IMG/VR virus record: IMGVR_UViG_3300037424_000176
Span: 1 to 24,433 of that record
Origin: a virus
Taxonomy: Duplodnaviria; Caudoviricetes
DNA: 24,433 nucleotides
Reading direction: 5' to 3' (one strand)
Position numbers and translations under genes: made by a program. Positions 6,567 to 24,433 of this stretch are shown piece by piece; position 1 is the first letter of the stretch; every line of letters begins with the position of its first letter. A model generated the notes under the pieces. That model was not told the origin of the DNA, searched no databases, and worked only from the letters and a program-made list of their open reading frames with translations.

Positions 6567-7268
6567 ATGAGCGAAGTCAAGCTATACCTGGGCGATTGTC
6601 TGGATGTTATGCGCGGGATGCCTAGCGGGAGTGCGGACGCGGTGATTACCTCACCGCCTTTTAACTTAGGCAATGGACACCATACAGGCAATATCAGGCA
6701 CAACCCATACCATGATGATTTACCTGAGCCGATATATCAAGAGACGCAGATAAAAATTCTGGCAGAAATATATAGGGTTTTAAGAGACGATGGCAGCTTG
6801 TTTTATCAGCACAAAAACCGGATAAAAGACGGTCGCCAGATAACGCCCTATGAATGGTTGCTGAAAACGGACTTTGTAATAAAACAAGAGCTGGTGTGGC
6901 GTAATAGGTCACAGAACTTTGACAAAATAAGATTCTATCCACAAACAGAAAGAGTTTATTGGATGGCAAAACACCCGAGCGTTACGATTTACAACGTTAT
7001 CAACGCCCCTGATATTTTCGACTGGCAGGCTGTTGGAACTAACGGAAGTCACACCAGAGCATTTCCGGTTGAGTTCCCTTCACAAATGCTTGCGTGCTTA
7101 CCAGACGCTAAAAATGTTCTTGACCCCTTTATGGGCAGCGGGACAACGGGAATAGCGTGTTTGAATATGGGCCGCAACTTCATCGGCATTGAGATCGACC
7201 AGACTTATTTTGAGATAGCCGAGAAGCGGATAGCTCAGGCAAAACTACAAATCAGGATGCCAATATGA
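6567..7268 (+). CDS. Beta-class N4/N6 DNA methyltransferase 2
   Basis: MSEVKLYLGDC, motif IV TSPPF, motif I DPFMGSGTT. Confidence 0.92.
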   Translation: MSEVKLYLGDCLDVMRGMPSGSADAVITSPPFNLGNGHHTGNIRHNPYHDDLPEPIYQETQIKILAEIYRVLRDDGSLFYQHKNRIKDGRQITPYEWLLKTDFVIKQELVWRNRSQNFDKIRFYPQTERVYWMAKHPSVTIYNVINAPDIFDWQAVGTNGSHTRAFPVEFPSQMLACLPDAKNVLDPFMGSGTTGIACLNMGRNFIGIEIDQTYFEIAEKRIAQAKLQIRMPI

Positions 7269-9384: not shown

Positions 9385-10605
9385 ATGAGCGACCAACTAC
9401 CGAGAGGCTACCTGCACGACTACCGGACTGAGAATATTGCAGACTTCGAGCTGCCCGTTCCGCTCAGTAACCGGATTACCGCATGGCTGACACCCGACCC
9501 GCCTATGGTTATGGGCGTGGATCTCAACCGCTTCCAGGCTGGCGAACTACTGGACGCTAAGGCCATGTACAACAGCGGCATCCGCTTTGCCATACTAGAG
9601 GCGACCTGGGGGTTATGGCAGCCGCCAACGTTCAAAGAGTTCTGGCCCAAGCTGGTGGACGCCGGGATCATCGTGCTTGGATATGGCTTCTTTCGCGGCG
9701 ACCAGGCAGGCAGCGCCCAGGCTGACCTGCTATTAGAGACCATCTACCCGGCCTACGAAGCGCAGGGCTTTTGGATGCCGTTATTCTCGGACGTTGAGAA
9801 GTTCGCCGGTGACACCGCCACCGTGCCCAACCGCCTGATTAACTGGCGGGCATGGATCAAAGAGATCGGGCTCGAAGTAACCCCCGGCTCCTACTCCAAC
9901 ATTCCAAGCTGGCAAACGTTGATGAACAACGAGCCGCTACCCTCTGACTGCCTGGGCTGGACGGCGCACTACACCAGCGTCACGCAGCCGCTCATCCCGG
10001 TTGGCTGGACGCGAGCGCAGACACCGTTCCACCAGTACGGCGTGGCTACCAAGTACAGCTGGTGCCCGCCCGTGCCCGGCATGGCCTCGGACGTGGACGT
10101 TGACCGCTTCTATGGCGACTTCAACTGGCTGATGGCGTTGAGTAAGGACATCGAACAGCCGCTGCCTCCACCCCCGCCGCCCGTCGACCTGCAACCGATA
10201 CTGGCCAGGCTGGACGCGCTGGAGGCTACGCAAGGCGACACGGTGCGCCTCATGTCCGACATGCAGGACGAGCTAGACGAACTGGATGCGCGGGTGGACA
10301 TCTTAGAGAACCCGCTACCACCCCCGCCGCCCGTCACCCCGCCCGCGCAGACCTGGGCGCAGGTGCGCGTGACGCGTGACCCTGGCGCTAATGCTTTCCA
10401 TGCGCTGACGAACAACGCCAATGGCTTCCCGATCATGGTGGCCTACACGCCGCAGATACAGTTCAAGCTGGGGCTGGTGCTGGACGTGTACCCAGACAAA
10501 GTTGACGCGGACGGATCGATTGACTTCTGGAAGCTGGCCCCGGCGCACGTGCCAGCCAATGCGCCCGCGCTGTACGTGAGAGCGGACAACGTGGTGAAGG
10601 TGTGA
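9385..10605 (+). CDS. GH25 muramidase endolysin with Pro linkers, coiled coil and C-terminal binding domain
   Basis: GVDLNRFQ, DVE (DxE), WTAHY, FHQY, DVDVDRFYG. Confidence 0.85.
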   Translation: MSDQLPRGYLHDYRTENIADFELPVPLSNRITAWLTPDPPMVMGVDLNRFQAGELLDAKAMYNSGIRFAILEATWGLWQPPTFKEFWPKLVDAGIIVLGYGFFRGDQAGSAQADLLLETIYPAYEAQGFWMPLFSDVEKFAGDTATVPNRLINWRAWIKEIGLEVTPGSYSNIPSWQTLMNNEPLPSDCLGWTAHYTSVTQPLIPVGWTRAQTPFHQYGVATKYSWCPPVPGMASDVDVDRFYGDFNWLMALSKDIEQPLPPPPPPVDLQPILARLDALEATQGDTVRLMSDMQDELDELDARVDILENPLPPPPPVTPPAQTWAQVRVTRDPGANAFHALTNNANGFPIMVAYTPQIQFKLGLVLDVYPDKVDADGSIDFWKLAPAHVPANAPALYVRADNVVKV

Positions 10606-10613
10606 GGTGAGAC

Positions 10614-10742
10614 ATGGATGACATAAATGCCATAATCTTTGTTTTGTGGCCGATATACGTTTGGCTAATATATCCCCCATATCCAACGATTATATTGTTC
10701 GAGAATGGAAAGTTTACATTTAGGATGGACGTGGGAGGGTGA
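10614..10742 (+). CDS. 42-aa AT-rich membrane peptide (MDDINAIIFVLWPIYVWLIYPPYPTIILFENGKFTFRMDVGG)
   Basis: GAGGTG SD; fills the gap before the next gene; below the ORF track cutoff. Confidence 0.45.
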   Translation: MDDINAIIFVLWPIYVWLIYPPYPTIILFENGKFTFRMDVGG

Positions 10743-10746
10743 GAGC

Positions 10747-11748
10747 ATGAGACGACAGCTAGATATACCGATGATGATGACGCAGATGGGGGGAGGGTTT
10801 CATCTGCCCTTTAGTGTGGATTTCACCGGCCTGACATCTGTTCCTGCCCCGTTCGCCGGGGCCAATCTATCTATAGCTGCCGGTAAGCTGATTGTTACGC
10901 CGACGTTGGGCGCTAACCTGCTTATCAATCCCACCTTTACAAGCTGGACAACCGACAATCCTAACAGCTGGTCAGCTACCGAATCGCCTCCCACCACAGA
11001 AATATCAGAGGTTGGGACTGGCGAGGGTCACGGCGGGGCGGGCACGGGGATGTGCAATGTCTACTCATCCGATGGCACGTTTGTGGTGATCTGGCAAACG
11101 GTGCTGACGGCAGGGCTATGGTACTGGGCAAACCTCGTAATCAATACCGTAGTTGCCGGTGGAATATCGCTGATCGAAAGCAATGCAAACGCCATAAAAG
11201 ACTACACCACAGCGGCAAGCCCAACGATAACCTTCCCGTCCCTTAGCGGCGCAAGCCCCGGTCGTTTCGATATTCGGCGACTTGCCGGAGGCGCAGCAGA
11301 CGTAACCATCGACAACACAGTTGTGAAAGCAATCACGACAACCACGCTTCTGGCTGCTGGTGTGCCGCAAACAAATACGCCAAACGTGATTGTAAAGGCT
11401 GGCTGGACGCTGACCGCGGACCTGCCTGCCGGAACGATTGCTCGCCTGGATAGTACCAGCAACCCACAGAACTTTCTATTGGCCTGTCACGACAGGACAA
11501 ACGCTCGACTATACAAGTGTGTCAGCGGCACGTACACCAAGTTAGTGGATGCGGCGGCAGCTTATTCCGCGGGCGCAGATGTCGAGATACGCTGCAATGG
11601 GGAAACCGTGCAGCTCTACTACAACGATGTTCAAATCGGGGCAGACCAGACCGTCTCCGATGCTGCGCTCCTCGATGGCGGATATAACCTACCCTGGTCC
11701 ACCAGCGCGGCCAATGCCTGCGGGAGTTTTTCAATCGCCCCTTTTTGA
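10747..11748 (+). CDS. Beta-rich CBM/lectin-like protein, possibly virion-associated
   Basis: GGAGG SD before ATG 10747; NLLINPTF..W CBM-like start; T/A/G/S-rich. Confidence 0.65.
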   Translation: MRRQLDIPMMMTQMGGGFHLPFSVDFTGLTSVPAPFAGANLSIAAGKLIVTPTLGANLLINPTFTSWTTDNPNSWSATESPPTTEISEVGTGEGHGGAGTGMCNVYSSDGTFVVIWQTVLTAGLWYWANLVINTVVAGGISLIESNANAIKDYTTAASPTITFPSLSGASPGRFDIRRLAGGAADVTIDNTVVKAITTTTLLAAGVPQTNTPNVIVKAGWTLTADLPAGTIARLDSTSNPQNFLLACHDRTNARLYKCVSGTYTKLVDAAAAYSAGADVEIRCNGETVQLYYNDVQIGADQTVSDAALLDGGYNLPWSTSAANACGSFSIAPF

Positions 11749-11787
11749 GCAGCCCTGGTACTGTCGCAACCTCCCCGTACCAGGGCT
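11722..11787 (+). promoter_or_regulatory. Putative -1 programmed ribosomal frameshift signal
   Basis: GGGAG (11722-11726); in-frame C_CCT_TTT heptamer (11739-11745) directly before TGA; 5-nt spacer; perfect 11-bp stem 11751-11761/11777-11787; next ORF is in the -1 frame. Confidence 0.6.
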
Positions 11788-12617
11788 ATACAGGAGCGGA
11801 AACGGCCTACAAAGGGTCTTTGCATTGCCACACGAACGAGAGCGATGGTGAGGGTACGCCGACCGAGTTAGCGACGGCATACGAGGCCGCTGATTACGAC
11901 TGGGTATGCGCTACCGATCACGATTTCTTGACTGCTGATACACCAACCGCCGATCCTGGGGTGCCTGGGATAGTATGGATATTAGGACTGGAGGAAACGG
12001 TAACCCTGAACGAGCACAGCGCCCACATTGCGGTAGGCAACATCGCAGCGGGCGATCCTGGGGCAGGCACTCCGCAAGACGCCATTGATAACGCTCCCTA
12101 TGCTCAGCTTGCCCACCCCTGGAGCGTAATCGGGCCACCAGCCGCACACTTTACGGATGCAGAAATGCTGGCGCTGACCGGATACGAGAGCATCGAGGTT
12201 ACCGATCCTATCGATCCAACGGGGTGGGACGTGGTGCTGACGGCGGGGATGCAGGTAGGTGGCGCTCCTACAGACGATGCCCATACGCTGACGGCTTACG
12301 GTACTCTCGCACGCTACTATGTTTACGCTGATGCGCTCACGGTGGGCGGGATCATTGCTGCGTTGCAGGCGCTTGCGTGGTACGCCACTCAAGGGCCGAC
12401 CCTGACCATCTCCGATGATGGCACTCGCTTACTGGTGACCACTCCAACCGCAGCGGACTTTACGTTCATTGGTTCGGGAGGCGCGACCCTAAAGACAGCG
12501 GTGAACGCAACCGCTGTCAGCTACCACTACCACAGCAGCGATGGTTACGTACGGTGTGTGGTAAAGCGATTGAGTGATAACAAATATGCCTGGACTAATG
12601 CGATATTTATCAACTAG
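11745..12617 (+). CDS. PHP-family phosphoesterase (CehA/McbA-like)
   Basis: YKGSLHCHT..SDG, ATDH, E..H, AHP, DDAH, GYVRC..AWTNAIF. Confidence 0.85.
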   Translation: MSSPGTVATSPYQGYTGAETAYKGSLHCHTNESDGEGTPTELATAYEAADYDWVCATDHDFLTADTPTADPGVPGIVWILGLEETVTLNEHSAHIAVGNIAAGDPGAGTPQDAIDNAPYAQLAHPWSVIGPPAAHFTDAEMLALTGYESIEVTDPIDPTGWDVVLTAGMQVGGAPTDDAHTLTAYGTLARYYVYADALTVGGIIAALQALAWYATQGPTLTISDDGTRLLVTTPTAADFTFIGSGGATLKTAVNATAVSYHYHSSDGYVRCVVKRLSDNKYAWTNAIFIN

Positions 12618-18547: not shown

Positions 18548-19408
18548 ATGGCACAACTCAACACTTATAGCGATATTTCCAGTATCGCTCCCAACATCCA
18601 GGAAGATGCGATCTTCGTGATCCGCGAGCTGGGGCTGATGCAGTCCCTCGTGAAAACCTTCCGCGACGCCACCGGGGCCAATCCCCGCGTCGGCTATACC
18701 TATAACCAGGGCACCGTCACGTCCCTGGCAGAAACGGACGACCTGACCAGCTCAGCCTTCACGCCTTCCGCTGACCAAACCCTGACCCCCGCTGAAATCG
18801 GTCTGCAGTTCTTCGTGACCGACCTGCGGGCGGCCACCGATGCGCCGGAGGATGTCATCTCCGACGGCGGCCTGGAATTGGGCATGGCGGCTGCTGACAA
18901 AATCGAGACTGACCTGCTGGGCGATCTCGCCAGCCTGACCGGCGGCACCGTCGGCACAGCTGGCTCCACGATCACCTGGGGTTACCTGTCCGCTGCTATC
19001 GCTCGCGCCCGCAACGCTAACAAATCCAACACCATCCCGCTGAACGTCGTGCTTCACGGCTACCAGTGGGAAGTGCTGTCCAGCTCAGCAACCATCGCCG
19101 GCGCTACCGTGGCCGCAACCGCTCCGGGCTTCCAAGAGGAATTGACCCGCAGCGGGTTCGTTGCGACCTACAGCGGCGCTCGGATCTACCAGGTCTGGGG
19201 CGGGCTTGTCAGCACCAACTTCACGGGCGGCGTGTTCCCCCGTGATGCAATTGCTATCGACTGGCGGCGCGGCGTGCGGGTAGAGCCCGAGCGTGACGCT
19301 TCCCGACGTGGCACCGAGTTCAACATGTCCGCTGTATATGCTCATGGTATTTGGCGGCCCTCCCGCGGCGTCCAGTTCGTCTTCGACGCCAGCGCACCGA
19401 CCTCATAA
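18548..19408 (+). CDS. Major capsid protein
   Basis: AGGAG SD before ATG 18548; follows scaffold; strong codon bias; C-terminal VEPERDASRRGTEF..YAHG. Confidence 0.85.
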   Translation: MAQLNTYSDISSIAPNIQEDAIFVIRELGLMQSLVKTFRDATGANPRVGYTYNQGTVTSLAETDDLTSSAFTPSADQTLTPAEIGLQFFVTDLRAATDAPEDVISDGGLELGMAAADKIETDLLGDLASLTGGTVGTAGSTITWGYLSAAIARARNANKSNTIPLNVVLHGYQWEVLSSSATIAGATVAATAPGFQEELTRSGFVATYSGARIYQVWGGLVSTNFTGGVFPRDAIAIDWRRGVRVEPERDASRRGTEFNMSAVYAHGIWRPSRGVQFVFDASAPTS

Positions 19409-19420
19409 GGAGCATAAACC

Positions 19421-19804
19421 ATGGCTAACAGTTTTGATGTCCACATCCTGACCTTCCCGGTGGTTCTGACCGCCGGAACCCAGGTTCCTCTGGTCCACCT
19501 GCCCGAAGCTGGCGGCGGGGCCACTGTCCTGGAAGCAAAGATGATTAATGCCGGTACGAGCGTCGGCCCGCTGCTACTCACCATGACCAACGTTGGCACG
19601 CCCGCTATCAGCGGCACGGTCGGCTACTTTGCCGCAGCCGCCGCCGGCACGATCACCGAATCCGCAACCATCCCCGCGGCCATGACCCTCTCTGATGGGT
19701 ATGTGGCGGCTGGCGAATGGCTCGGCTTTGACCAGACCGGAGGCACCGTGCCCGCTGGCTCGTTCATCAGCGTCGCATACGTGAATGGCAGGGCTGGTTC
19801 CTAA
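19421..19804 (+). CDS. Putative capsid decoration/cement protein
   Basis: AAGGAG SD; A/G/T-rich beta protein right after the MCP with the same codon bias. Confidence 0.65.
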   Translation: MANSFDVHILTFPVVLTAGTQVPLVHLPEAGGGATVLEAKMINAGTSVGPLLLTMTNVGTPAISGTVGYFAAAAAGTITESATIPAAMTLSDGYVAAGEWLGFDQTGGTVPAGSFISVAYVNGRAGS

Positions 19805-19813
19805 TGTAATCAA

Positions 19814-19903
19814 GGGCCGGGATAGGGTTCTAGATCCGATAAGTGTGCCTCCTCCTCACACTTCCCGGCCCGCCTGGAGGATAAGCGCCAATGGAGGGGC
19901 GCT
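19814..19903 (+). ncRNA. Putative cis-regulatory three-way-junction RNA with anti-SD loop
   Basis: P1 19814-19822/19863-19871, P2 19825-19829/19833-19837, P3 19842-19847/19857-19862 with loop CCUCCUCCU; GGAGG at 19876 and 19893. Confidence 0.6.
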
Positions 19904-19908
19904 GAACG

Positions 19909-21789
19909 ATGAACATCCTTTGGCTTTCCAACGCTCCCTGGGCGGCTACCGGCTACGGTAACCAAACCCGGCTCTTTACCAAACGAATAAACGACCTGCC
20001 AGAATACAGCCTGTCTATCGCCGCTTTCTACGGCTTAGAGGGCGCACCGCTGACCTGGGACGGCATCAAGATATACCCGCGAGCCTACCACCCTTACGGG
20101 GTGGATATCGCGGCCGCACATGGCGACCAGATCAAGGCTGATGTGATTATCAGCCTGATTGACGCCTGGGTGATGGATGCCGACCTGCTGCAATCCAATG
20201 GAGCGCGCTGGATACCCTGGTTTCCGGTGGACAGCGAACCCTTGCCCGCGGCGGTACTAGGTAAGATCAAAGACGCCTACAAGCGCATCGTGTTCAGCCG
20301 CTTCGGGGAGAAGATGGTACACGACGCCGGGCTTGACTGCTACTACGTGCCGCACGGGATAGATACTAAGACGTTCAAACCAGGCGACCGCAAGGTGGCC
20401 CGCGAGCGGCTAAAGCTGCCGGAGGGTAAGTTCATCGTCGGGATGGTAGCGGCTAACAAGGGCTTTCCGTCTCGCAAGTCGTTCCCTGAGTGTATCTTTG
20501 CCTTTGCGAAGTTCCACGAGGAGCACCCGCACACCCTGCTGTACCTGCACACCACCAAATCAGAGCGGGGTGAAATGAACGGGATGAACCTGCCGGCCTA
20601 CATCGAAGGACTGGGGCTCAAGTTGGGCGAGGATGTCATCTTCTGCGACCAGTATCACGGGATTATAGGCTTCCCAGACAACTACATGGTTGACCTGTAC
20701 AACGCCTTTGACGTGCTGCTATCACCTTCGATGGGCGAGGGCTTCGGAATACCGATCCTTGAGGCGCAGGCTTGCGGATGCCCGGTGATCGTGGGCGATT
20801 GGACGGCCATGAGCGAGTTATGTTTCGCAGGCTGGAAGATCGCCAAAGAGCACTCTCACATGTTCTGGGATCAGGTAGGCGCTTACAAGTTTATGCCCAA
20901 TCCAGCCGCTATCTACCAGGCGCTTGCACAGGCTTACACACAGGCCGGCAAGCTGCGACACAAAGCCCGCAAGGGAGCCGAAGGCTACGACGTTGAGCGG
21001 GTGATGGCGAAATACTGGAAGCCGGTGCTAAAAGAGATTGCCGCCCTGGTTGATGAGTGGAAGCCGAAGCACGTCCACGAATGGATCAAGGTGGGCCTGT
21101 TCAACCCTGACGGCTCGCTATCGACGCCCTGCAAGGCTTGTGGGGCCGAAGCACTATCCGAGAGGGGCAAGCCGACCAGGATCATCGATGGTGGTTTCGA
21201 GAACCCGGACAATCTTGAGTTCGTCCACCCTGACGGCCTGGAATGGCTGCTGCTGAGAGAGACGCGCCGGGACTACGGCGCTGACAAACTGAACCTTAAC
21301 AAATCAAGCATAGTTGTAGACATCGGCGCTCATGTGGGGGTAGTAAGCATGAGCCTGGCGAAGCGCTACGGATGCAAGGTGATCGCCTTCGAGCCGAACC
21401 CGGATAACTTCGCCCGGCTGCTCGAGAACATCATAGCGAATAACTTAGGCAGCCTGATTACAGCGCTACCGTGTGCCGTGACTGGCGACGGGCGCAAGGT
21501 CAAGATCGGCACTGACACTGACAACAGCGGCGGCAATGATATATACGGGGATGGGGTAGAAGTCGAGAGTGTGACGCTAGCAGAAATCATGGATCGAGCG
21601 ATCGGTACGGTTGACCTGCTAAAGATCGACGCTGAGGGGGCCGAATACGAGATCCTGAAAGACGTAGACCTGAGCAACATCCGCGCTATCCGGGGAGAGT
21701 TCCACGGGCAAGACGGTAAGGCGCTGCTAGATGCAGTCACAGCGAAGGTACCCGACACCAGGGTAACGCTGCAAGGATGGACTGGATGA
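19909..21789 (+). CDS. GT4 (GT-B) glycosyltransferase fused to FkbM-family methyltransferase
   Basis: TGYGNQT, VPHGID, RK, PSMGEGFGIPILEAQACG; then VVDIGAHVG, FEP, LLKIDAEGAEYEIL. Confidence 0.92.
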   Translation: MNILWLSNAPWAATGYGNQTRLFTKRINDLPEYSLSIAAFYGLEGAPLTWDGIKIYPRAYHPYGVDIAAAHGDQIKADVIISLIDAWVMDADLLQSNGARWIPWFPVDSEPLPAAVLGKIKDAYKRIVFSRFGEKMVHDAGLDCYYVPHGIDTKTFKPGDRKVARERLKLPEGKFIVGMVAANKGFPSRKSFPECIFAFAKFHEEHPHTLLYLHTTKSERGEMNGMNLPAYIEGLGLKLGEDVIFCDQYHGIIGFPDNYMVDLYNAFDVLLSPSMGEGFGIPILEAQACGCPVIVGDWTAMSELCFAGWKIAKEHSHMFWDQVGAYKFMPNPAAIYQALAQAYTQAGKLRHKARKGAEGYDVERVMAKYWKPVLKEIAALVDEWKPKHVHEWIKVGLFNPDGSLSTPCKACGAEALSERGKPTRIIDGGFENPDNLEFVHPDGLEWLLLRETRRDYGADKLNLNKSSIVVDIGAHVGVVSMSLAKRYGCKVIAFEPNPDNFARLLENIIANNLGSLITALPCAVTGDGRKVKIGTDTDNSGGNDIYGDGVEVESVTLAEIMDRAIGTVDLLKIDAEGAEYEILKDVDLSNIRAIRGEFHGQDGKALLDAVTAKVPDTRVTLQGWTG

Positions 21790-22160
21790 ACGAACACCCA
21801 TTCCTTGAAATTACCGAACACGAATTACCTTTCGGCAAAAGCTATCGGACATATCACTGGCCAGCGAAGCCGTGGCAAGCGGTACTGATTGGCGACCGCG
21901 CCATTGAGTACAGGCACGAAATGCCGTGGAAATTAGTTGAAGTGGAAAGATACCCGGAGTGGCGTGGCAGTCTGTATGTAAGATCGGACGGCTTTCTTCT
22001 TGTCACACGATGCTTAATGGCAGTAAAGATAAAGGTCAAAAAACTACTTGAGTTAGTTTACTACCGCCTGATATTAACGGCTATGGTTTGGGGATTGGCT
22101 TATGTCCCAGACTTTGAAGCACCATCCTGGCGACATCTTGGGAAGCAGAGAAAATGGTAA
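21786..22160 (+). CDS. Hypothetical protein (lower GC, Trp-rich)
   Basis: ATGA overlap at 21786; overlaps the GT2 start. Confidence 0.65.
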   Translation: MNEHPFLEITEHELPFGKSYRTYHWPAKPWQAVLIGDRAIEYRHEMPWKLVEVERYPEWRGSLYVRSDGFLLVTRCLMAVKIKVKKLLELVYYRLILTAMVWGLAYVPDFEAPSWRHLGKQRKW

Positions 22161-22768
22161 GCATCGCAACGCCGTGGATGGGCCATCCTGAGCTGCTCGC
22201 CACCTACCTGCCGACCGTGCGCGGGGCCGAGGTTGTCATCGTGGATAACGCCAGCGACCCGGAGACTGCCCGCAAGCTACAGAACGCCGCCAGCATCTAC
22301 ATTCGCAACGAGGAAAACAACCGCTTTGCGAAGGCCAGCAACCAGGGCATACGGGTCGCTACGAATGACATTATCCTGTGCCTGAACAACGACACCGCCG
22401 CCCCTAGTGGATGGCTGAAAGATGTGGAGAGCACCGTAAAACCGGGCGCGTTCTACGGCCCGAGCGTGATGGTTCGCAAGGTGGACGGCAACCAGGTCAG
22501 GTACATCGAAGGCCACTGCATCGCCGCCACCCGCACAACCTGGGAGGCCGTTGGACTGTGGCCCGAAGATTTACCGGGCATGTACTGGGAGGATAACATC
22601 TTGTGCCTGCGGGCGCTTATAGCAGACATCCCGCTCATTAAGACTAACTGGCCCGTGCAGCACTATGGCAATTACACCGCCCGGCATGTGGTCGATTCGA
22701 TAGCGTTCAGCGAAGACAACCGCAAGACTTTTGAGGACATGTACCGTGCATATCATTACCAGCACTAA
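22154..22768 (+). CDS. GT2 (GT-A) glycosyltransferase
   Basis: VVIVDNAS, NNRFAKASNQG, LNND, YWEDNILCLRA, H. Confidence 0.9.
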   Translation: MVSIATPWMGHPELLATYLPTVRGAEVVIVDNASDPETARKLQNAASIYIRNEENNRFAKASNQGIRVATNDIILCLNNDTAAPSGWLKDVESTVKPGAFYGPSVMVRKVDGNQVRYIEGHCIAATRTTWEAVGLWPEDLPGMYWEDNILCLRALIADIPLIKTNWPVQHYGNYTARHVVDSIAFSEDNRKTFEDMYRAYHYQH

Positions 22769-22798
22769 TCAGGCTGAGTTCCTGCGGGGGCTAAAAGC

Positions 22799-23569
22799 GT
22801 GATCACATACACGTCATTCAAGGACCACCCGCTGACTTCTATCAGCTTCTACCGGAACACCACCCGCTTTGAGCCGACCAGCAACGGGCCGCTGCACCTG
22901 GGACACCTGTACATGATCCTGGTCAACTACCACGAGGCGAGATCCACCGGCGGCAAGTTTGTGTTCAGGATCGAGGACAACAGCCAGGAATGGAACTGGC
23001 GCTGCGGTAAAGAGACCACGCAAGACTATATCAACGGCTACCGGGCAGACCTGGAATGGCTGGGTATCGAGCCGGATGAATGGCTTCTTGAGAGTGAGTT
23101 GGAAGCGGAAGTCAACGAGATCCGCGAGATGCTAGCTCCCGATTGGGAAGCTGAGAAGAAGGTCATGTACTTCGTGCCGTGGGTGCCATTCGATGAAGCG
23201 GTGACATACTACCCATATGCGCCGCACCTGACGATTAGTCGGGTAATCCTTGACTGTTATGCGGGCGTGACCCTGCTCATTCGAGGCAACGACCTGTTGA
23301 CCGAACACTGCCTGTATATGCACTTATGCGACCGGCTGGGACTGCCTAAGCCTCGCTGCGTGTACCTGCCCCGCCTGCGGCTTCAAAGCAAAAAGGAGCT
23401 TCTGGGATCGATCAGCAAGACCAGCGGCGGTTTCTCTATTGCCAGATACCGTGACGAGGGCTGGAAGCCCAAGGACTTGCTCGCTGAATTGCGCCGGGCC
23501 TGCCTGAACGACCCAGAGGGCGATTGGACGATCAGGAACGTGAAGCGGGAGCCGCTATGGTCGATGTGA
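22799..23569 (+). CDS. Glutamyl-tRNA synthetase-like (class Ib catalytic domain only) paralog
   Basis: TRFEPTSNGPLHLGH (HIGH), GGKFVFRIED, DLEWLG, LLIRGNDLL, ISKT (KMSKS-like), SIARYRDEGW; no anticodon-binding domain. Confidence 0.88.
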   Translation: MITYTSFKDHPLTSISFYRNTTRFEPTSNGPLHLGHLYMILVNYHEARSTGGKFVFRIEDNSQEWNWRCGKETTQDYINGYRADLEWLGIEPDEWLLESELEAEVNEIREMLAPDWEAEKKVMYFVPWVPFDEAVTYYPYAPHLTISRVILDCYAGVTLLIRGNDLLTEHCLYMHLCDRLGLPKPRCVYLPRLRLQSKKELLGSISKTSGGFSIARYRDEGWKPKDLLAELRRACLNDPEGDWTIRNVKREPLWSM

Positions 23570-24324
23570 CCATCCACTTGGGCGACTGCTTAGAGATATT
23601 ACCTACCATCGAGGCGGGGAGTGTGGACGCTATCCTGACTGACATCCCCTACGGCACGACCGCCTGCGCATGGGATGAGGTTATCCCGTTCGAGCCGATG
23701 TGGGAGCAAGTCAAGCGGGTACTTAAGCCGCGGGGCGTGTTTGTGACTACGGCAAGTCAGCCGTTTACGTCAAGACTGGTTATGAGTAATGTTGGGTGGT
23801 TTCGCTATACATGGATTTGGGACAAAGGGGTAAGCGGCTCGTTTACCCTTGCGAAGTATCAACCACTTAGAACGCACGAAGATATTTTGGTATTTAGCCA
23901 CAATGGGCATACATACAATCCGCAAATGGTAAAGCGTGATAGGCCAGCGAGGATTGGCGGAGTAAAGGGCGGCAAAACAACATCGGGAGGCGCATCAATT
24001 CAATATAACCCCGATAAGTTATCAGACAAGAAGGTTTATACAGACGCTTTCCCAAAGACAGTATTTTACTACTCGCCAAGAAGCGACAGAGAGCGCGGCC
24101 TACACCCTACCCAGAAGCCCGTCGCCCTGTACAAGTACCTGACGCTGACCTACACCAACGAGGGCGACACGATACTGGACATCGCAGCGGGGAGCGGCAC
24201 AACCGGAGTGGCGGCGGTAGAGACTGGGCGCAACTTCATCGGGATTGAGAAGCGAGAGGACTACTTCGAGATTATGCAGAAGCGGATAGCAGAGGCGCAG
24301 ATGCAAATGAGGCTGCCAGTATGA
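23557..24324 (+). CDS. Beta-class N4/N6 DNA methyltransferase 3
   Basis: Start at ATG 23557 (MVDVTIHLGDC); TDIPY, HPTQKPV, DIAAGSGTT. Confidence 0.92.
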   Translation: MVDVTIHLGDCLEILPTIEAGSVDAILTDIPYGTTACAWDEVIPFEPMWEQVKRVLKPRGVFVTTASQPFTSRLVMSNVGWFRYTWIWDKGVSGSFTLAKYQPLRTHEDILVFSHNGHTYNPQMVKRDRPARIGGVKGGKTTSGGASIQYNPDKLSDKKVYTDAFPKTVFYYSPRSDRERGLHPTQKPVALYKYLTLTYTNEGDTILDIAAGSGTTGVAAVETGRNFIGIEKREDYFEIMQKRIAEAQMQMRLPV

Positions 24325-24433
24325 ACGCACTAAAGCAATCGGGGGCGGGTATCTTCCTGGTGCTGCTGGTGCTGCTGGCCTTCTTCCAGCTTGTCAACCC
24401 GGTGTTCCTGTCACCCGTCAACGTGGCGACCAT
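24321..24433 (+). CDS. Membrane protein N-terminus (3' truncated), resembling sugar ABC permeases
   Basis: ATGA overlap; MNALKQSGAGIFLVLLVLLAFFQLVNPVFLSPVNVAT. Confidence 0.45.
   Translation, partial: MNALKQSGAGIFLVLLVLLAFFQLVNPVFLSPVNVAT

Follow-up and report, generated by a model that had tools for sequence, protein, structure and literature searches.

What is a protein resembling glutamyl-tRNA synthetase (GluRS) doing among the glycosyltransferases (GTs) of a phage head operon? The question is raised by virus record IMGVR_UViG_3300037424_000176, whose whole length of 24,433 nucleotides (24.4 kb) is the window analyzed here. The 3′ part of the window is a head operon encoding terminase, portal, MuF, scaffold, and major capsid protein (MCP), and the gene in question lies downstream of it, behind a GT4 and a GT2 gene:

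22799..23569, + strand: minimal GluRS-core protein, 256 residues (PF00749, E 2e-21)

We find that this protein belongs to a large family of synthetase paralogs, smaller than GluQ, that cannot be taken for translation genes and whose closest associations are with genes for sugar handling.

A synthetase core without its tRNA-binding parts

The structural model of the window protein (predicted local distance difference test, pLDDT, 81.6) matched GluRS (2ja2) in VIA with a Z of 19.9 over 217 aligned residues (root mean square deviation 3.2) and GluQ (4a91) with a Z of 17.2. The protein has a class I Rossmann core in which the HIGH and KMSKS motifs are present as HLGH (residues 33–36) and ISKT (205–208), together with a triad of Arg-23, Asp-152, and Arg-162. 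Over a redundant set of 185 family sequences, conservation was 96% for Arg-23, 96% for His-33, 99% for His-36, 99% for Asp-152, 91% for Arg-162, and 97% for Lys-207, and HLGH and SK were kept at 93–99%. The triad aligns with Arg5, Asp195, and Arg205 of Thermus thermophilus GluRS, described in the available excerpt of PMC2978374 as the main glutamate-binding triad. Tyr187, which the same excerpt gives as Leu or Met in many archaeal GluRS, is mostly Leu in the family, and the Glu41 position is acidic (Asp or Glu in 95%).

What has been lost concerns the tRNA. From Glu41 to Arg205 the family median is 103 residues (116 of 185 sequences parsed), against 159 in GluRS (114 of 125) and 168–173 in all three true GluQ, and the family is without ~55–65 residues of the acceptor-binding domain. 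The anticodon domain is missing as well, with 52 residues after KMSK in the family compared with 225 in GluRS. The positions of Asp44 and Arg47, which in GluRS we take to have a role toward the tRNA, are not conserved. Against the GluRS model TIGR00464, the window protein scored 58.5 bits for a cut-off of 290; its best NCBIfam match was a GluQ model at 79 bits for a cut-off of 250, and another gave 61 for 277. The three true GluQ references, which were chosen by NCBIfam, scored 317–360 bits; the initial short-length bin consisted mostly of a second short clade. Because the acceptor-binding insert and the anticodon domain are missing, the protein is by its sequence neither a GluRS nor a GluQ. 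Because the adenylation site is intact and the tRNA-binding parts are gone, the family is most likely a tRNA-independent ligase.

The initial annotation had proposed an adenylate intermediate by analogy with GluQ. The capacity for adenylation agrees with the retained motifs and glutamate triad and with the selection described below; of the analogy itself the chemistry holds and the architecture does not, because GluQ has the insert that the family is without. We also considered a GluQ-like enzyme that would attach glutamate to queuosine or to a different modified base of tRNA or phage DNA. The window protein has the catalytic-domain-only trait of GluQ (256 residues, no anticodon domain), its best NCBIfam match is the GluQ model, albeit at 79 bits for a cut-off of 250, and the leucine of RGxDL is common to both, whereas the acceptor-binding insert is deleted. 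DNA methyltransferase genes adjoin the synthetase-like gene in the window and in L145 (L numbers denote fetched loci), but the adjacent methyltransferase is optional. Among complete carrier genomes, none of 5 had TGT and none of 4 had QueC, with one partial QueC-profile match in a 340-kb record, and tRNA genes occurred in 2 of 21 loci, none of them for Asp or Glu. We regard this explanation as very improbable, and no support was found for phage DNA as a target, one of those that the initial annotation had named.

An apparently viral family under purifying selection

A profile search returned 167 clusters (50% identity) at E ≤ 1e-30, and the best 150 of these 167 are nearly all 230–265 residues long or fragments. 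Family members in the fetched loci scored 223–367 bits compared with at most 107 for ordinary GluRS and GluQ, fragments aside; three full-length GluRS that passed the score filter (L062, L146, and L202) were moved to the controls. A quick tree with 58 rows separated the 18 rows of the family from all others at a branch with SH-aLRT 100, and the long branches make the origin of the family unresolvable in this tree.

The family is apparently viral. All 26 family loci in the score-filtered set are viral or metagenomic contigs, and the top ESM Atlas clusters are 86–100% viral among the few members with taxa. A metagenome scan covering 8 of 64 parts and crowded by ordinary GluRS gave 5 family-level matches among 80 loci; a similarly crowded scan of cellular genomes, covering 3 of 64 parts, gave no family-level match among 80 loci. 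None of 50,697 records of cultured phages covered 80% of the synthetase-like gene, and a single-sequence scan of viral contigs with the window synthetase gave no match, an alignment-based search being needed. In a search without a positive control, none of 401 genomes from a single phylum, the one to which an Anaerolineae metagenome-assembled genome (MAG) belongs, contained a family member. The importer's binding protein, described below, was found in 0 of 301 genomes of the same phylum, whereas the MCP had matches in 22 of 401 at 33–37% identity, by which the host is not identified.

The ratio dN/dS was 0.03–0.10 in six measurable pairs (0.03–0.06 in five of the six, one saturated), rough values given a dS above 1. 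The family is under purifying selection. A decaying host GluRS fragment acquired by chance would account for the short protein and the long branches, but we consider it most improbable given ~150 clusters of near-constant length (230–265 residues), a single clade with SH-aLRT 100, these dN/dS values, family-specific invariant residues, and fixed partners. The family illustrates how much of a class I core can be lost while selection persists.

Databases label family members as glutamyl- or glutaminyl-tRNA synthetase. Our literature search found no description of the family or of its combination with these neighbors, within a scope that left out supplementary gene tables, where such proteins may be listed as tRNA synthetases. 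The second short GluRS-like clade, of ~280–320 residues, is a separate observation (L022, L023, L025, L029, L033, L035, L051, L060, L178, and L190, with the match at about position 10001 in most loci). It occurs mostly on large viral contigs, its insert is partly shortened (span ~121 residues), and tested members fall below the GluRS and GluQ cut-offs.

A TIM barrel is the steadiest partner

The family loci form 19 lineages at 60% identity, window included; neighbor counts use the 18 others, and the control set comprises 190 loci with ordinary or other short GluRS or GluQ. The steadiest neighbor is a TIM barrel of ~340 residues, found within 4.1 kb in 16 of 18 lineages and in 0 of 190 controls. 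Its gene often overlaps a neighbor and is sometimes doubled. In the two lineages without it (L143 and L015), the contigs end within 609 nucleotides of the synthetase-like gene; a downstream open reading frame (ORF) of L015 that had been taken for a barrel did not match the later profile and was counted as a miss.

The barrel model (pLDDT 88.9) resembles glycoside hydrolases (GHs): profiles of GH42 structures matched at E 2e-7, and VIA gave effectively tied Z values of 22–25 to 5gsl, beta-amylases (GH14), and GH42. The first catalytic Glu is invariant (37 of 37 sequences). A reciprocal scan with the barrel returned nine loci, mostly close kin, three of them without a synthetase and with the barrel at most 1.3 kb from the contig start. 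The synthetase and barrel trees have in common the pairs L013/L016 and L011/L045 and the L264 group and differ elsewhere. A complex prediction for the L264 barrel and synthetase scored 0.00, which we take as evidence neither for nor against an interaction.

Three further observations concern the barrel loci. One 340-kb record, a jumbo phage, holds two separate synthetase-barrel loci with three barrels (L011:8972–11754 and L045:9998–11748). L045 has an HldE-like kinase/nucleotidyltransferase and a PrkA-DUF444-SpoVR set in its vicinity. Protein P0025, a barrel homolog annotated as beta-galactosidase, comes from a 16.9-kb contig assigned to a Thorarchaeota MAG, a contig that may be viral or misbinned.

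Sugar importers and glycosyltransferases

A CUT2-type sugar permease is adjacent to the synthetase-like gene in 9 of 18 lineages, absent despite room in 5, and not assessable in 4; it was found in 0 of 190 controls. Permease, binding protein, and ATPase are all present in L014, L018, L044, L247, and L264, whereas the L005 group, L019, L046, and L047 have permease and binding protein without an adjacent ATPase. The importers are of two kinds, only 21–26% identical to each other, and the ATPase-bearing kind is confined to one synthetase clade (SH-aLRT 96). This divergence and confinement suggest that sugar importers were recruited twice, separately. Structure matches of the importer proteins were weak and indicate no particular ligand. 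The linkage ties a synthetase core to sugar import, a rarely noted function in phages.

In the window, two genes follow the synthetase-like gene:

23557..24324, + strand: N6/N4 DNA methyltransferase (PF01555, E 5e-33)

24321..24433, + strand: 5′ end (37 codons) of a CUT2-type sugar ABC permease, truncated by the contig end

Of the 37 permease residues, 21 (57%) are identical to the permease of L005 (E 2e-11), itself a PF02653 protein (E 4e-34). Relatives have the permease directly overlapping the synthetase-like gene, and contigs from sequencing runs X1 and X3 (one contig per run; X1 may be the source sample) connect position 23563 to 24335, bypassing the methyltransferase. This methyltransferase is likely an optional insertion between the synthetase-like gene and the permease. 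Because the methyltransferase-less variants join synthetase to permease as in the L005 group, we predict that a binding-protein gene and the barrel gene lie just beyond the contig end. The cluster, which the initial annotation had ended at 23569, thus has the genes that it assigned to 19909–23569 but continues through the methyltransferase into the permease.

GTs were found in the fetched flank of 11 of 18 lineages, or 12 with one sub-threshold match. They come from three unrelated families, GT2, GT4, and GT17. A GT2 that is 44–49% identical to that of the window sits directly 5′ of the synthetase-like gene in L004–L010, and GT17 occupies the same place in L044 and L143 and lies two genes 5′ in L150. 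Protein P0104 is a GT17-synthetase fusion. Some lineages add nucleoside diphosphate-sugar dehydratases, a DegT aminotransferase, or CmcI methyltransferases. Homologs are thus not mostly free of GTs, in agreement with the co-occurrence that the initial annotation expected. The combination of GT4-FkbM, GT2, and synthetase, however, does not form a conserved unit: the steadiest partner of the synthetase is the glycosidase-like barrel, often with the importer, rather than the GT4/GT2 set.

The post-capsid GT4 slot

Upstream of the synthetase-like gene, the following features lead from the capsid gene to GT2:

18548..19408, + strand: MCP, 286 residues (phrog_544, E 6e-6; phrog_267, E 5e-5)

19421..19804, + strand: post-MCP protein, 127 residues, conserved and at an equivalent position in relatives

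19812..19886, + strand: conserved multi-stem intergenic element, int-alpA-like, between the capsid genes and GT4

19909..21789, + strand: GT4 glycosyltransferase fused to an FkbM-type methyltransferase, 626 residues (PF00534/PF13692; PF05050, E 3e-19)

21777..22160, + strand: low-GC ORF (GC 47%), 127 residues, between GT4-FkbM and GT2

22154..22768, + strand: GT2 glycosyltransferase, 204 residues (PF00535, E 4e-14)

The order of GT4-FkbM, GT2, and GluRS-like genes 3′ of the capsid gene, as first annotated, is confirmed by PF05050, PF00535, PF00749, and phrog_544. Their tight coupling also holds, as genes overlap or sit within 30 nucleotides from GT4 on; the junctions from GT4-FkbM to the permease are, in order, −13, −7, +30, −13, and −4 nucleotides, and a gap of 104 nucleotides separates the post-MCP gene from GT4-FkbM. 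The gene list was incomplete, having missed the 127-residue ORF at 21777–22160. This ORF had no family match in Pfam, PHROG, and related profile scans and one homolog among the fetched loci (L281); relatives have different small genes or nothing at its position, and it is probably an optional insertion. Promoter and terminator scans gave counts at chance level only.

The gene order around the MCP matches that around the annotated MCP of phage Mae-JY09. Ser and Thr make up 18.5% of the MCP compared with 11–13% of scaffold, portal, and TerL, and we presume that the MCP is the glycan acceptor. A gene does follow it, as the initial annotation stated, but the decoration label lacks a Pfam or PHROG match. 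In the ESM Atlas, the neighbors of this 127-residue protein are unnamed viral clusters at 0.95–0.96, and a match to a phage cement protein at 0.79 is a lead only; it is possibly a cement or decoration protein.

The FkbM part of the GT4 fusion scores above the TIGR01444 cut-off, and the protein carries EGFGxxxxE at residue 277, DIGAHVG at 471, and KIDAEG at 572. An FkbM domain is common to all 17 long GT4 ORFs among the fetched loci. We surveyed GT4 in 85 viral loci, drawn from the best 80 of 580 matches and forming 32 clusters (80% identity, single linkage). The MCP lies 5′ of GT4 in all 28 clusters having 1.5 kb of upstream flank, whereas a synthetase-like gene is present in only 4 of the 26 clusters with enough downstream DNA. 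This last figure is inflated by L004, L005, and L043, which entered the survey via the synthetase search; L049 ends in a synthetase fragment, but its flank is too short, placing it outside the 26 clusters. In the closest GT4 relatives (60%), a GT34-like gene, radical-SAM genes, and GT2 follow (L223:3990–5276 and L228:7327–10183). The nearest cultured matches, Mae-JY09 (47%) and phiPsal1 (36%), also have GT4 3′ of the MCP, with other glycan genes and no annotated synthetase.

Because the partners of GT4 vary and the synthetase is mostly missing, the slot between the MCP and the connector genes is a fixed GT4 plus exchangeable glycan genes. The locus consists of two modules, this MCP-linked GT4 slot and a separate accessory synthetase module. 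By its position and by the mycobacteriophage precedent discussed below, the slot, with GT4-FkbM and GT2 in the window, is likely a virion-glycosylation locus.

The intergenic element ahead of GT4 has 13 aligned copies, with compensatory changes in 7 of 11 predicted pairs; copies occur in the window and in L001, L005, L009, L043, L049, L222, L240, L247, L254, L261, and L283. Those in L049 and L222 attain the gathering score of Rfam RF02996 (int-alpA) (two of five loci), whereas the window copy had no Rfam match at E ≤ 1. We had considered the element as a new RNA and dropped this idea because copies in relatives match int-alpA. By eye, a loop CTCC might pair with GGAG further 3′. L242, L259, and L268 have a plain hairpin in place of the multi-stem element.

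Elsewhere in the window, N6/N4 DNA methyltransferase genes occur three times within 24 kb (824–1675, 6567–7268, and 23557–24324). The region 9385–12617 encodes a GH25 endolysin, a 347-residue protein of unknown function with a weak tail-protein match, and a PHP-type metallohydrolase, all three 5′ of the terminase rather than 3′ of the tail genes.

A proposed route from imported sugar to virion glycan

From the genes present and the way they are linked, the fold, the residues kept in the ATP site and glutamate pocket, the missing tRNA-binding parts, and the purifying selection, we infer every chemical step of the following scheme. Through the importer, the infected cell would take up a monosaccharide or a small glycoside, and the TIM barrel would free or transfer the sugar. 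Needing no tRNA, the synthetase core would form glutamyl-AMP or a closely related acyl-AMP, whose acyl group it would then transfer to the sugar or the growing glycan at a hydroxyl or amine. GT4 and GT2, together with the methyltransferase domain, would then attach the glycan to capsid proteins and cap it. That synthetase core, barrel, and, often, importer feed an amino-acylated sugar into the virion-glycan locus is the reading we tentatively favor, at a little less than an even chance. The broader proposal, a widespread pathway in which a GluRS core acting as a tRNA-free amino-acid-to-sugar ligase works with a phage importer and glycosidase to turn scavenged sugars into aminoacylated, methylated virion coats, strikes us as doubtful, though well worth considering.

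Several observations weigh against the favored reading. Only 22 of 35 sequences have the second catalytic Glu of the barrel, and without close kin the correlation between synthetase and barrel distances is weak (rho 0.24, Mantel p 0.06, 14 loci). The fusion P0104 is a single sequence on one 3-kb contig, and a search of 8000 candidates for longer family forms gave none at E ≤ 1e-30. The pocket has also changed: the position of Asn191 (window residue 148), typically small in GluRS according to the available excerpt of PMC2978374, is Lys or Arg in 85% of the family. Moreover, Glu-169 and Tyr-173 are new near-invariant residues, and with such a non-canonical pocket the activated acid may not be glutamate.

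A sugar-activating nucleotidyltransferase or sugar-acid ligase, which would turn an imported sugar acid or a sugar phosphate into an adenylated donor for the GTs, would suit the added basic residue at position 148, the loss of Tyr187, and the new Glu-169 and Tyr-173, as well as the partnership with a glycosidase fold and a sugar importer. Nucleotidyltransferases that have a HIGH motif and make nucleotide sugars exist. We nevertheless judge this alternative unlikely, as the Arg-Arg-Asp triad and the acidic residue at Glu41 (Asp or Glu in 95%) are retained and the best structural matches are GluRS, with no cytidylyltransferases among the top 50 rows.

The remaining contrary points concern gene placement. 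The GT4 slot does without the synthetase module in 22 of 26 clusters. Six of 18 lineages have no GT match in the fetched flank, and the GT-free copies include two in one 340-kb phage (L011 and L045) with 10 kb on each side. Just three other lineages occupy the slot right 3′ of the window's MCP type; a further five are found close to terminase or portal genes, and several are elsewhere. The main rival is a host-directed module, independent of virion glycans, that imports a sugar, makes or unmasks a small aminoacyl-sugar conjugate (a solute, a signal, or a host-surface modification) and only occupies a permissive slot. The permease and the lipoprotein-type binding protein must work at the host membrane, the synthetase-barrel pair stands without adjacent GTs in L011, L045, L013, and L016 and outside head operons in L011, L015, L045, and L046, and GT4 loci are mostly without the module. 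However, GTs neighbor the pair in 11–12 of 18 lineages, from unrelated families and with one GT17 fusion besides, and elsewhere in the 340-kb phage there are four matches to GT2. We rate a host-directed role as possible but rather unlikely.

If the scheme of aminoacylated virion glycans is true, amino-acyl groups would be part of these glycans, whose synthesis would rely on scavenged sugars. This would matter for the evasion, by phage particles, of glycan-reading receptors, enzymes, or predators in sediments.

Comparison with known systems

GluQ-RS/YadB resembles the family in being a GluRS catalytic-domain paralog without an anticodon domain and with the glutamate triad. As described in the available excerpts of PMC10690763 and PMC7373986, GluQ forms its ester at a diol hydroxyl and not at the 3′ end of the tRNA. 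The product, gluQ, is labile according to PMC10690763, and esters made by the window family may be so too. It differs in having the acceptor-binding insert (span 168–173 compared with 103 residues in the family); the family scores far below the GluQ cut-offs, forms its own clade, and occurs on viral contigs with glycan-enzyme neighbors. With bacterial GluRS (GltX, class Ib), the family shares the Rossmann fold, HIGH, the KMSKS lysine, Arg5/Asp195/Arg205, and VIA Z values of 19–20, but it is without the acceptor-binding and anticodon domains, and its pocket is altered at 187 and 191.

Synthetase cores that serve other acceptors are known from cells. MshC, derived from CysRS, acylates an amino sugar, and PoxA/EpmA, derived from LysRS, passes an amino acid to a non-tRNA acceptor. 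Both are cellular and have known acceptors, whereas the window family is GluRS-derived and viral; we see them as a model for how the family may work, not as its relatives. The partner barrel likewise differs from GH42 and GH14 enzymes in being a bare ~340 residues with 8–15% identity.

The mycobacteriophages Che8, Corndog, and Myrna encode GTs that glycosylate capsid and tail tube, according to the available excerpt of PMC12363180, which mentions no synthetase paralog, glycosidase, or importer. Phage-encoded GTs are the common trait, with glycosylation by those of the window being a prediction. The type of glycosylation locus to which the module attaches is thus known; what is new is the synthetase-paralog family in an undescribed sugar module.

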